Part shown: positions 11,001-20,000 of the stretch, in pieces
Layout: each line of letters starts with the position of its first letter
Numbering within the stretch: position 1 is the first letter of the stretch
Assembly (NCBI GenBank): GCA_964016885.1
Contig: OZ024743.1
Location: forward strand, 296,918,001-296,982,000
Length of the DNA: 64,000 bases
DNA from: Eledone cirrhosa
Taxonomy: Eukaryota
Reading direction: 5' to 3'
Position numbers and translations under genes: made by a program
The notes under the pieces: model-generated
Databases searched by the model: none
What the model was told of the DNA's origin: nothing
Seen by the model: the letters and a program-made list of their open reading frames with translations, nothing else

Positions 11001-14000
11001 ATCATTTTTTTTTTCAAATATATCTTATTGGACCAAAGATATTCCTCATTTTCAAATATATATGTATATATATACTTTTTCTTTTTCTTTTGTTTCCTAC
11101 ATATCACTAAGACTGCAAATTGACAATTGTTAGGGCATCGGATTAAAAATGCCTTGATATTTGTTCAAATCTGTTTACCTGTCTCTTATTTACAGCTTTC
11201 AGCATGTCATTGGAGGACATCTATTTACCTCAGCTGGTACCCAGTACTACCATGGCTTCAACATTACACTTTGTGGATCTCCAGATGGTCCGAAAGCTCA
11301 GTGTGTTAACAATGTTACCACGCTGCCCAAAGAGGTAAATAATTTATGAAAAAATCTATGTTTACTCCAGAAATGACAAATTGTATCTGGAAATTCAGAA
11401 ATCTATTTAAAAAAAAAATATCCATTTATTTATGTTAGAAGAATGGTGTCATTTTTGGTATGCTTTGTTGAGCTTTTCATCTAGTCTTCTGCTTATGGTT
11501 TCAATAGCTGAACCTTGAAAAGCATAACACAATTGTAACAGTCTATTTAGCATTGGTACTGTCCGACTGAAGGTTAACTTTCAACTATGCTATATCATTA
11601 TAATTATTTAATTTTTACTGTTTATTCAGGAAGGGCCCATTACCGTTTTCAGAGTCTCAGAGACTGGTATGAGAGAAGAAGGGAGGGAGGATGGTATCCT
11701 AAAATTGAAGTCTTGGCACACATGCTTGCTAAAGGTCTCTGCTAAAGGCACCCAAGGGCCATATGGTGATGTTAAATCGGCTAACAAATTAAGTTTACTA
11801 CCAAAGTAGGACATAGTAAGATTTGAACTCAGGACTTCTATAAGCTTCTAAAGGAGATTGAGATGTTTACATCCATGAAACCACTGGTAATGCATAAAAG
11901 AAGTCAAACTGTTTATATATATAATGTTGAGAAGTGACACACAAGTTGATATATATTAAAAAAATAAGAAACAGTAGAAAATGCTAATAGAATTTTTTCA
12001 TGGAAAAACATTTTTTTAAAGGGTAGGACTAGTTCCAGTTGATAACAATTTTGACTTCCTCATACTAGAAAGTTCTTGCTGTTTCAACAGCAAATTCCAG
12101 ATATTAGTTTGTAAAATTTATTAAACTTTAAAATAGATTCAAAAAGTTTTGGTTTATTATATATATATATATATATTTAAACGATGATGATGATGATGAT
12201 GATGATGATGATGATTATATATATATATATAACGAAGGAAGTGTGGACCATAACACACCAGAGTACTCGATACTTTGGGTAGTAGAGTGGGTAATAGGAA
12301 AATGTTCAAGACCCCGACGGCAGAGCTCAAGCCATTTCGAAGGCTATTTCTGGACTCAAGAAGTAGTCCAGAAATAGCCGTAGAAACGGCTTCAGCTCTG
12401 CCGTCGGCGTCTTGAACATTTTCATATATATATATATATATATATATAATTAATAATAATAAATTTGAAGACTAAAATCCAAAGAGGGCTCGATAAGGAT
12501 AAATATATATCAAATATATAAGAACCGTAGAGCAAATATTTATTAAAATAACAGATTAAAGTTTAAGCAAAGAATCGCTGCTTTCACCCTTAACGGGATC
12601 TTCTGAAACTAACAAAGTCAATCTGTAAACGCAGAAGTGGATATTTCAAAAAACGTTGCAACCGGAGGAAGACAGGAAGACGATACTTTGGTTCGTGGTA
12701 ACGTTCGCTGGCAAAGAACGGGAAAAAACGAATAATACGTCATTAATAGGAGCGGTGAAAAACAATTACGCGCAAAGACAGAACCACGTGGTTCTGTCTT
12801 TGCGCGTAATTGTTTTTCGCCGCTCCTATTAATGACGTATTATATTCGTTTTTTTCCCGTTCTTTGCCAGCGAACGTTACCACGAACCAAAGTATCGTCT
12901 TCCTGTCTTCCTCCGGTTGTAACGTCTTTTGAAATATCCACTTCTGCGTTTACAGATTGACTTTGTTAGTTTCAAAAGATCCCGTTAAGGGTGAAAGCAG
13001 CGATTCTTTGCTTAAACTTTAATCTGTTATTTTAATAAATATATATATATATATATATATATATATATATATATAAAGGTTAAACAAGGTTCAATGAATA
13101 AATCAATGAATAAAGTTTTACAATAGATTCGAAGCACTCCACAGGTGGTTTTCCGGAGTTATTAATATTAATTCAAAATATTAACATATATAGACATTCG
13201 TGTGATCAAATATATTTCATTATACATATTTCAGAGGAACTGAGCTATTTTCAACAGTACGTCCTCATCAGATAAAATAAGATGATGCATGACATACCTT
13301 GACTAAGTAGATGGTTAAAATTCAGTCATGGCAGTAGAAGATAGCTGTTGAAGATAGCTCAGTAACTCTGAAATATGTATAATAAAATATACTTGATCAC
13401 ACGAATGTCTATATTTGTTAATATTTTAAATTAATATATATATATATATATATATATATTAATAAAAGGAATTCCAACTTTGTCTGATTTACTCGTTTTA
13501 TTTACAATCCTTTAAAATTATAATGATATTATAATGAAATAGTATGGTAGAATATTAAATGTTAAATGTTAATTGAACAAGTACTTTCATGCTTTCGCAA
13601 TCTTTAGGTTCATCAAGTCAAGTTTGCAATTTTCAAATGTAATGAGATGGCTAAAATCTGTGCCTTATATACAGTAAAAAGGGGCTACAGAATGCTAAAT
13701 TTTGCCAATTGTATTTCGACCAATCGGTGTGTGGTTTCACTAGATTACTAAAGCTGATTGGTTTAGGCATCACGGTTGGTTGAGCATGTCTAACGACTTC
13801 TGTTTGCCCCTTTGCTATTTTTAGAAATGATGAAATTAGCATTTTGTAGGGTTTTTATAAATAATTGTTTCTACTTTTTGGCACAAGGCCAGCAATTACC
13901 CAGTGTATTACTGGTACTTTATTTTATCGACCCCGTAAGGATGAAAGGTAAAGTCAACCTCAGCGGGGTTTGAACTCAGATCGTAAAGGGACGTAACTAT

Positions 14001-17000: not shown

Positions 17001-20000
17001 AGATCTCTTGGATAAATTAATTATTTTAGGATCTACGTGTTCAATTGTTTTGGGTATGTTTCCTCCTGGAGTTTTTCTTTTTCCGGTTTCTGTTGTCCTG
17101 ACGTTAAAAAATGGATTTTTCTCTGTTCAGGATTTATATTCCTGTTGGTGTTCGCTTGATGAACTTTTGGTTGTGATATTATACTTAGTTTTGTTATGTT
17201 TTTTGTCCTATTTTTGGTATTATGTATATTACTTTTCCATTTCTTGTTAGCATTATTTTTAACAATCAGGGAAAATGACCTATGTTTGCTTTCAGGTTTA
17301 GATCGTTGTTTTGCCCAGTTTCTTGTGCGTAATCTCTGTTGAGATCTTGAAAGTGATCTGGTTATTCTGTTTTTTTCCTCATTCCTTGAGGGTAGTCTCT
17401 GTTGAGATCTTGAGAATGATCGCCTGGTTTTTCTACTTCTCATGGTCTGTTTACGCGAACTCTGTAAAACAACTCTACCAAGAAATAGAGGAAAAATATA
17501 GCACTGAATTTAGAAAGTACATTGAAAAGTCTTGGAAAAGATACTTTGATGACTGTTTCATCATCTGGACAAAATATCTAGATACTCTGGACGAGTTCAA
17601 TATCCTCCTGAATAACCTATACCCATCTCTCCAATTTACAAAAGAGATGAGTAGTACTAAATTACCATTCCTAGATATAATGGTAATCAAAAACGACACC
17701 ACCATTACCACAGATATATACTATAAACACACAGGCACCCACCAATATCTGAATTTTAAGTCGTGCCATCTACCTCATACAAAACGCAAAATCCCATACT
17801 GTCTAGCCAAAAGAATTTGTACCATTGTAGAAGATACGAATACCAGGAACAAACGCCTAACAGAACTGAGAGAATTTTTGCTCAAACAAAAATACCCATC
17901 TCTACTTATAGAAAATGGCATACAGCGGGCTATAAAAATACCTATACAACAACTTAGGACAACCCAAGGAAGAAGAAACCAAGAATTGGTCATACCATTT
18001 ATAATGACACACAACCCATGTCACCAGAATATCTTTAACACTGCCAAAGCAAACCTACCGATCATTGCTCAAAGTAATGAATTAAAAGGTTTAATCACAG
18101 ACCGAGCTTTGATTCTTAGTAAAAGACAGCCGAAAAATTTGAAGCAATTACTAACAAAGGCAAAGTTTGATAACAAAGACCAATCATTCACTGTATCTAA
18201 ATGCAATGATAGTCGATGTGGCACATGTCAGTTCATACATACTGGTCAATATATGAACACAAAAACTGAAAAAATATTCCCAAATGCAAATATGAACTGC
18301 AAAAGCAGAAATCTAATTTACTGCATTAAATGCCCGAATTGTGAAGAACTAGATATCGGTCAAACTGGAAATGCACTATCGGAACGTGCACGGGTGCACC
18401 AACAGCAAATCAGAGACCCAAATGTCCGTCAGATATCCCTGAGTAACCATCTAGCAACATGTGGTCAGAAAATATTTATAATATTTCCATTCTACAAACT
18501 ACACAGCCCAAGTGAAATCAAGAGAAAAATTAAAGAAAAGAATTTTATTGATAAATTCCAACCCAAGCTAAATGAACAATAATAATGCTTAGGGGTATTA
18601 CTTCTACTATGACCACGCCTACGACCATGTCGACTACCACCACTGACAACAACAACAACAATAATAATAATAATAAAAGTGATGTTGATGTTGATCATTA
18701 CTGAATATTTTTTTTATAAAAACCCTAGAAAATGCTATTTTCATCATTTCTAAAAATAGCAAAACAATTGATGCTTTGGATAGGGTCAAACAGAAGTCGT
18801 TAGACATGCTAAACCAACCGTGATGCTTAAAACAATCAGCTTTAGTAATCTAGTGAAACCACACACCGATTGGTCGAAATACAGTTTGCAAAATTTAGCA
18901 TTCTGTAGCCCCTTTTTACTGTGTATAAGGCACAGATTTTAGCCATCTCATTACAGTTGAAAATTGCAAACTTGACTGTCACCATTGAATATGAACCTGA
19001 AGATTGCGAAAGCATTAAAGTACTTGTTCAATTAACATTTAACATTCTACCTTACTATTTCATTATAATATCATTATAATTTTAAAGGATTGTAAATAAA
19101 ACGAGTAAATCAGACAAAGTTGGAATTCCTTTTATTAATATAATCTTCTATACACAATCATACAAACCCGTGTATATTTATATATATATATATATATATA
19201 TATATATATATATAGGAAAATGTTCAAGACACATAAAGATACATATATACACATATGCATCACACACACACACACACATATATATCTTGTCTGATGACCC
19301 TGTGAGAAGCAGGCAAAACTCCAGAGTAACAAGACTCACTATTTAGCCTTAATGAAATGATCATAGTATAATAAACCTTTCAAGGATTTACGCCAGTCTA
19401 GCCTCCTGTTATTTTATAATAATTAACTCCGAACTCGCACCACCAACTACACAAACGAAGACGGGTGAGTTGCATTATGTTGAGTGCTTTCCATAATATT
19501 ACATCGAGATTGACCATACGGAATGACCAGTTCTATCCAGTAGTAAACCAACAAATCTAAATATATATATATATATATATGTGTGTGTGTGTGTGGTTAT
19601 GGAATTATTACTAATCGATGACCAGCCTATTCTCCACAGAATTTGAAACAGTACTATACCAGCTTAGCCGTGGATTTTCGCATTCTAGCGGATTTTTGTG
19701 CTAAATGAGAAGGGTAATGGCTGATTCTATTGAGGAAATTGAGAGTGCTTTAACGTTTTCATTTGTTGATTTGTCGATACGATAGTTACACTGTTTTGAT
19801 AACTTAGGCTTCTGACTGGGAATGTTGTCCTACATTTAATCCTATGCATATGCTCCAAATGAATTTGTTGGGCAAATTGTAAATGAGATCAAAATCACTG
19901 AATATTGATCTAAACCGTTATTATTATATATAGGGTAGTGGATTGGCAGTATAGGTAGAGGGTATGATGCCATGCATTGCAGCAAAGAGTTATGGCCCTT

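Follow-up and report, generated by a model that had tools for sequence, protein, structure and literature searches.

Four head-to-head insertions of Penelope-like elements in (TA)n repeats of Eledone cirrhosa and their probable origin by priming from both target strands

Introduction

Inverted, 5'-truncated copies with a tail at one end and a bias toward (TA)n targets have been described for Penelope-like elements (PLEs), and the mechanism of the inversion was left unsettled (Craig et al. 2021, PMC8557442). We analyzed a 64,000-nucleotide (nt) stretch of the Eledone cirrhosa genome (GenBank assembly GCA_964016885.1, contig OZ024743.1, positions 296,918,001 to 296,982,000 of the forward strand; hereafter the window), in which four fold-back elements, called E1 to E4 from left to right, follow one another between positions 12216 and 19214. 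We consider it likely that this region holds four separate PLE insertions into TA repeats, each composed of two head-to-head 3' ends and produced by priming from both strands at two start sites.

Head-to-head PLE palindromes, with TATA and initiator-like words in the pseudo-long terminal repeat (pseudo-LTR), were reported earlier together with a proposal of self-priming (PMC3846280), and Penelope transcripts start in the pseudo-LTR from a TATA-less promoter (PMC2377424). In Schistosoma, hammerhead ribozymes occur as opposite-strand pairs separated by 100–700 bp (Cervera and De la Pena 2014, PMC4209133); the minimal PLE hammerheads of that study have short helices, an extra unpaired base before helix II, and a palindromic helix III, as here, whereas the cores found here include a U4A change and the Schistosoma pairs were left undissected in the accessible text. 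With the Poseidon element PAc of Anolis in vitro, both strands of AT-rich targets were nicked and extended, reverse transcription began at two start sites whose spacing equals the tail, and a dimer was predicted; the hammerhead was dispensable and no RNA reads were reported to end at its cut, whereas the E4 family has an excess of genomic 5' ends there (Frangieh et al. 2024, PMC11167929). Non-LTR retrozymes, too, are short PLE derivatives without coding capacity that carry type I hammerheads, but they are tandem direct repeats with complete hammerheads, in contrast to the single head-to-head pairs with locus-specific junctions seen here (bioRxiv 10.64898/2026.07.22.740005).

Published PLE features already include head-to-head copies, tails on one side only, insertion into (TA)n, hammerheads, and short forms with two hammerheads, and families E1 to E4 are new members of known PLE clades. 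The accessible text of an octopus repeat annotation mentions neither palindromes nor Hydra (PMC13282606). A literature search, which left most subscription papers and all supplements outside its scope, returned no report of the one-tail rule described below, of allele sharing between arms, of promoter-anchored short palindromes, or of genomic 5' ends at the hammerhead cut. The added value lies in the junction evidence, a suggestive read-out of PLE integration that uses DNA only. In L1 twin priming, both target strands prime on the RNA to yield an inversion whose parts cover different stretches, whereas both arms of the present palindromes cover the same 3' stretch.

Results

The four inverted repeats reported by the initial annotation are present, with arms that are 90%, 98%, 91%, and 96–97% complementary in E1 to E4, respectively, and with true spans, tails included, of 12232–12423 (E1), 12451–13038 (E2), 13075–13433 (E3), and 13460–19179 (E4). 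Each carries an extra tail on a single arm, which is the left arm in E1, E2, and E3 (65–95 nt) and the right arm in E4. The intervening DNA, previously read as (TA)n, is such at the three boundaries between elements (Table 1), and the remaining "spacer" consists of these tails. Similarly, the description of a 3' end copied twice was right in that both arms are 3' ends; the arms are not identical, since one carries the tail.

We searched the 3.0-Gb assembly with exact patterns of 24–30 nt (all counts are lower bounds), and compiled pattern-selected loci from the first 30 matches listed per pattern, nearly all on one contig, as well as an unselected sample of forty 10-kb stretches at round-number positions (400 kb). 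In each family, 3' ends fall at two fixed positions: the body end, from which negative positions such as -61 are counted back, and a tail end 76 (E1), 89 (E2), 98 (E3), or 42 (E4) nt further on; the E1 tail of the window (~12232–12296) is shorter than the ~76 nt of its family. In tandem copies, the tail passes directly into the 5' untranslated region (UTR) and open reading frame (ORF). After deduplication by flank sequence (97 pairs reduced to 82, with one or two duplicates remaining) and with pairs whose short arm is solely a tail fragment left uncounted, a single arm carried the tail in 74 of 82 palindromes, both arms in 2, and neither in 6, whereas independent choice predicts 50% (p = 7e-15). 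The palindromes point to a rule by which each strand would use one start site. The tail-less arm was longer by >15 nt in 15 of the 74 one-tail palindromes, E4 of the window included, and the tail arm in 9; since neither arm contains the other in those 15, simple snap-back copying is disfavoured.

The two arms also shared subfamily alleles, with an agreement at polymorphic sites of 161/173 for E1 (0.60 when shuffled), 36/38 for E3 (0.74), and 129/137 for E4 (0.53), which none of 500 shuffles reached; the E2 test comprised two palindromes only and its shuffled control was uninformative. Agreement this high implies a single template or a single source copy for both arms, or else later conversion. 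Across genome copies, the letters at the inner junctions differed between loci, as anticipated by the initial annotation, and lengths varied from the inside. Separately, a 2–6 nt loop in the E3 tail (13143–13146 in the window) was hypervariable among copies otherwise 90–95% alike, even among tandem units (27 rows; also in raw reads), which may reflect the addition of untemplated bases at a template jump.

A PLE origin is supported in that all four arms run into PLE ORFs and their termini are flanked by (TA)n and lie tail to tail; as proposed for the small palindromes, every arm maps genome-wide and extends 5' into such an ORF. The E2 arms reach an ORF with RWR, DKT, CxCx5C, CxxC, and CxH motifs, the E1 arms a related one (38–46% identity, E to 4e-63), and the E3 arms a third Hydra-type ORF (DKT) across a ~2.1-kb 3' UTR; E3 looked non-coding at first because the 1 kb upstream holds no ORF. 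The RWR motif was read in the E1 ORF at locus L294 and DKT in the E3 ORF at L289, and all three ORFs have the CxCx5C linker and, in the endonuclease (EN), CxxC and CxH without CCHH. Assignment of E1 and E3 to reverse transcriptase (RT)/GIY-YIG elements is by similarity to E2, whose ORF has 143 homologues, one of them named a GIY-YIG superfamily endonuclease; Pfam searches of this ORF and of the E4 right-arm ORF in the window gave no match.

By these motifs, the putative parents of E1 to E3 are Hydra-type PLEs, a clade with a C-terminal GIY-YIG-type EN, RW[RK], DKT, CxCx5C, CxxC, and CxH without CCHH, (TA)n targets, and inverted copies that are truncated 5' and tailed at a single end, as in E1 to E3 (PMC8557442). 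Published tails of 30–40 nt are exceeded by the 76–98 nt of E1 to E3, and that study found few Hydra families outside cnidarians, whereas three very abundant ones occur here; it also calls canonical hammerheads universal in Hydra, whereas the E2 core has U4A and E1 has none that is canonical. The ~2.1-kb 3' UTR of E3 is a further difference, and the estimated lengths of E2 (slightly >3 kb) and of E3 (>4 kb, owing to that UTR) exceed the clade's tendency toward <3 kb. The parent of E4 has a 775-aa RT/GIY-YIG ORF (locus L126; Pfam RVT_1, E 2.9e-6, below cut-off, and GIY-YIG, E 3.3e-6) with GxKF, DKG, a Cx4CxxC linker, and CCHH, a frameshifted upstream ORF, and a minimal hammerhead with a palindromic helix III. 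It is accordingly a candidate Neptune- or Nematis-type element by motifs, the linker (Cx2-5CxxC) and CCHH endonuclease being common to both, and its homologues carry no clade names. The initial annotation, which called the four elements sequence-unrelated and the largest a head-to-head Neptune PLE, was correct about the head-to-head PLE, but the motifs also fit Nematis and E1 to E3 come from related families. At locus L126 (G000:C1:21870500-21880400; see also L229–L258), an 8.3-kb palindrome holds two near-identical full-length E4 copies with open ORFs. All 40 of the 40 scored E4 5' regions were 100% identical, indicating that the family is young.

Exact matches numbered 878 for E1, 22,804 for E2, 225 for E3, and 5,874 for E4, against 0 for reversed controls. 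The 400 kb of unselected DNA held 29 arms (19 E1, 7 E2, and 3 E4), which extrapolates roughly to 10^5 arms genome-wide. The association with (TA)n was confirmed: (TA)4 lay within 40 nt after 271 of 312 3' ends, compared to 12% of random positions (E1, 123/136; E2, 46/58; E3, 67/76). Another E1–E4 end was faced within 100 nt by 35 of 308 pattern-selected and 6 of 33 unselected ends versus 29 of 2,186 TA-tract ends (11–18% vs 1.3%; links were mostly scored from both sides, a few duplications are included, and tract length does not enter the null). Insertions of the E1–E4 families commonly stack tail to tail, and the locus is ordinary for this genome; the proposed recurrent insertion hotspot was therefore not borne out. 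Runs of four are expected tens of times or more genome-wide by our estimate, and so the E1–E4 site needs no special explanation.

The 5' ends of 35–69% of the short arms lay within 6 nt of a family-specific site (E1, 67/97 at -61; E2, 19/54 at -67; E3, 19/42 at -164; E4, 15/39 at -194), and because of this, copies can look like miniature inverted-repeat transposable elements (MITEs), as the initial annotation had warned. Arms found incidentally ended at the common site in 34 of 47 cases for E1 and 7 of 22 for E2, the E1 tailed arm of the window ends at its family's usual point (~-64), and many raw Illumina reads of E1 diverge from the reference sequence at the common site. E3 and E4 both have a perfect TATA box 31–33 nt upstream of their common site, and words which we take to be initiator-like overlap the common sites. 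The pseudo-LTR upstream of full-length E4 and E2 copies forms partial tandems, and mostly reaches further upstream than the common 5' site.

A pattern for E4 5' ends at the predicted hammerhead cut matched 103 times genome-wide, and 28 of 30 inspected matches were true ends; control positions 10 nt to either side gave 32 matches (16/30 true) and 17 matches (5/17 true). As a separate observation, locus L296 (G000:C184:98000-106000) holds seven tandem E3 3'-end units (from -55 through the tail plus ~20 nt) whose starts lie no more than 4 nt from the predicted hammerhead cut and which are separated by telomere-type TTAGGG repeats, with the E3 sense strand on the G-rich strand. This arrangement resembles the telomere attachment of EN-less PLEs, but involves an EN-containing Hydra-type family and the opposite polarity.

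Hammerheads had been assigned to E2, E3, and E4, and folds were indeed found ending 20, 44, and 107–114 nt from the respective body ends; within the window, however, only the core of the E3 left arm is intact, whereas the opposite arm of E3 retains only half of the motif and the core of either E4 arm carries a single change, and Rfam hammerhead models gave no match at E ≤ 10 (only hairpin-type chance matches below the gathering score). A type I descriptor allowing one core change, loosened after the window motifs had been seen, matched 5 times in 12200–19500 (the left arms of E2 and E3, the two arms of E4, and a site past E4 at 19285–19334) versus 0 in 60 composition-matched Markov controls. 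At the family level, E3 and E4 have intact cores, 45 of 48 E2 arms have the U4A change, and fold and descriptor scans found no canonical hammerhead in E1, only a degenerate look-alike. Among genomic copies, core positions were not clearly more conserved than their neighbours. We also noticed that U4A creates, at -79 to -63 of the E2 family, a polypyrimidine-CAG word resembling a 3' splice site; helix I, where this word lies, is also where the Penelope intron ends in Drosophila (PMC4209133).

Further family ends lie in the window. A fifth, hammerhead-bearing family is represented by an end with one core change at 19285–19345, just past E4, with a related copy at 10177–10223 and short palindromes at loci L078, L125, and L212, and a sixth by a 3' end with extension at 19353–19545, copies of which at L093 and L042 are palindromic with a hammerhead-like core. 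Another intact-core type I hammerhead is predicted at 42377–42419 (minus strand), and similar sequence forms a short palindrome at L125. At 19214–19231, a 17-nt remnant identical to the E1 body end stands opposite the E4 tail across the TA tract.

Coordinates of the four fold-backs are collected in Table 1. The E4 long arm comprises ~3 kb of element sequence with part of the upstream ORF, RT, and GIY-YIG, and is interrupted by three later insertions, two resembling short interspersed elements (SINEs) and one resembling a solo LTR; the former may resemble octopus SINEs. Elsewhere in the window, a cysteine-rich, exon-like frame at 10254–10607 (plus strand) has an ephrin-receptor-like Pfam match (E 1.3e-5), and the stack may lie inside an intron of the corresponding putative gene. 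Long interspersed element (LINE) copies with AP-endonuclease and RT, which we assume to be RTE-like, occur at 237–1919, 6403–8250, 20524–21666, and 22726–25830, one with a 1,034-aa open frame.

Table 1. Features of the E1–E4 region (window positions; hammerheads and clade assignments are predicted from motifs)
Feature	Position	Strand	Remarks
(TA)n target left of E1	12216–12231		
E1 tailed arm, 3' end of putative Hydra-type PLE	12232–12360	-	tail ~12232–12296
E1 tail-less arm, -62 to body end	12364–12423	+	degenerate hammerhead look-alike only
(TA)n, E1/E2 boundary	12424–12448		
E2 tailed arm, second putative Hydra-type PLE	12451–12787	-	89-nt family tail 12451–12539, body to -249
E2 type I hammerhead fold	12560–12610	-	core variant U4A, family-wide
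E2 tail-less arm, -249 to body end	12788–13038	+	hammerhead 12968–13018, second core change
(TA)n, E2/E3 boundary	13039–13075		
E3 tailed arm, third putative Hydra-type PLE	13075–13344	-	tail 13075–13168, body to -177
E3 type I hammerhead	13213–13279	-	intact core, 8-bp helix I, long helix II
E3 tail-less arm, -88 to body end	13345–13433	+	without first half of hammerhead core
(TA)n, E3/E4 boundary	13434–13459		
E4 tail-less long arm, 5'-truncated putative Neptune/Nematis-type PLE	13460–17450	-	hammerhead 13574–13612, one core change
SINE-like later insertion in E4 left arm	13855–14038	-	many copies within window
Second SINE-like insertion in E4 left arm	15617–15821	-	
444-bp TG..CA insert, solo-LTR-like, in E4 left arm	16305–16748		5-bp target duplication
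E4 tailed short arm, mid-RT through GIY-YIG, 1.7 kb	17450–19179	+	hammerhead 18992–19030, one core change; 42-nt tail 19138–19179
(TA)n right of E4	19179–19214		

Discussion

In the scheme that we favour, both nicked TA strands would prime reverse transcription on the element RNA, and a protein dimer would probably allot one of the two fixed RNA start sites to each strand. Both cDNAs would stop at the RNA 5' end or earlier and then join, often via short microhomologies. Short palindromes would represent run-off from transcripts that start at a pseudo-LTR promoter 60–200 nt above the start sites, and would be dead ends without a TATA box, while a minority of templates would start at the hammerhead cut site. 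Insertion would leave (TA)n on both sides, so that the next insertion would be invited. We hold the more specific version, in which a PLE dimer assigns one start site to each strand, most insertions in this genome are abortive run-offs from the element's own promoter, and the hammerhead cuts template RNA in vivo, to be possible but somewhat doubtful.

Several points weigh against priming from both strands at two start sites, or against particular steps of it. In vitro, PAc showed no difference in start site between strands (PMC11167929), whereas the palindromes here use one site per arm. E1 has only a TATA-like word with two mismatches at -29, and E2 has none. Predicted RNA hairpins have their base at the common 5' sites of E3 and E4, and in E2 the site falls at helix I, so that RT stalling could explain these sites. 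Full-length copies would be expected to begin at the common site, but most do not: among 30 full-length E4 loci, the upstream pseudo-LTR begins at -194/-195 in 2, at the hammerhead cut in another 2, and extends past -699 in 9, and none of 14 E2 full-length loci starts at -67. The E4 excess at the cut (about 96 : 17 : 5 true ends at cut and control positions after correction) was obtained with three patterns that differ in the number of copies that they can match, and of the first 100 cut-site matches, counted by hand, 40 have an identical fold-back junction, located at a natural inverted repeat of 4 bp, which microhomology joining alone could make; leaving out the shared-junction matches, the excess is still about three- to tenfold. 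Arm-to-arm conversion could account for allele sharing. The transcript starts and the hammerhead self-cleavage invoked here are putative, being deduced from DNA alone.

The same PLE origin would also accommodate self-priming, as already proposed in PMC3846280, in which either an antisense RNA or the initial cDNA would loop back on its own end and be copied, with one arm losing its tail during resolution. Shared alleles fit this reading, as do several centres that are perfect micro-palindromes with 2–7 nt of self-complementary overlap (4 nt in E2 of the window), and among the 14 palindromes that lie off the common 5' site, 6 have arm ends no more than 12 nt apart, a snap-back pattern that also counts against priming from both strands. 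Nevertheless, the 15 palindromes with a longer tail-less arm would require the tail to be cut from the long or the short arm by case, and extension of both strands from two sites has been seen in vitro (PMC11167929); we regard self-priming as unlikely. We think it improbable, too, that the short palindromes propagate themselves, transcribed as palindromes and reinserted by PLE protein in trans in the manner of retrozymes. Their very high numbers (19 E1 arms in the unselected DNA) and similar lengths would suit such a cycle, and non-autonomous PLE derivatives are known (the retrozyme preprint above; PMC8557442), but the junction letters vary as if each palindrome had formed independently, the TATA box lies above the start of the short forms, and those of E1 have no canonical hammerhead.

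Being short, palindromic, flanked by TA, and abundant, the small elements might pass for TA-targeting MITEs of a DNA transposon, and Mutator-like elements that target TA microsatellites do exist (PMC4486113). The fixed symmetric terminal repeats and junctions, fixed length, and lack of an RT link of such MITEs were looked for; instead, the termini are asymmetric, lengths vary from the inside, and the arms run into RT/GIY-YIG ORFs, a linkage that makes this origin very improbable. An artefact of assembly or library preparation could be suspected because the window's own junctions were unbridged in independent Illumina reads from other samples with the same species label, for which Logan contigs were too short to span them. 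We give this hardly any credence: the arms differ by 2–10%, the tail is on one arm, one E4 arm took up three later insertions, and raw Illumina reads of other samples contain E3-family and E1-family joints between opposite strands at several positions.

For annotation, it matters that abundant short PLE palindromes look like TA-targeting MITEs. For PLE biology, the formation of inverted structures was named an open question (PMC8557442), on which the junction statistics bear; they predict one start site per strand, run-off to the pseudo-LTR promoter, and hammerhead-cut RNA as template. If the more specific dimer version above is true, about a hundred thousand mini-palindromes would constitute a fossil record of PLE integration, in which promoters and ribozyme cut sites would be readable directly from the genome.

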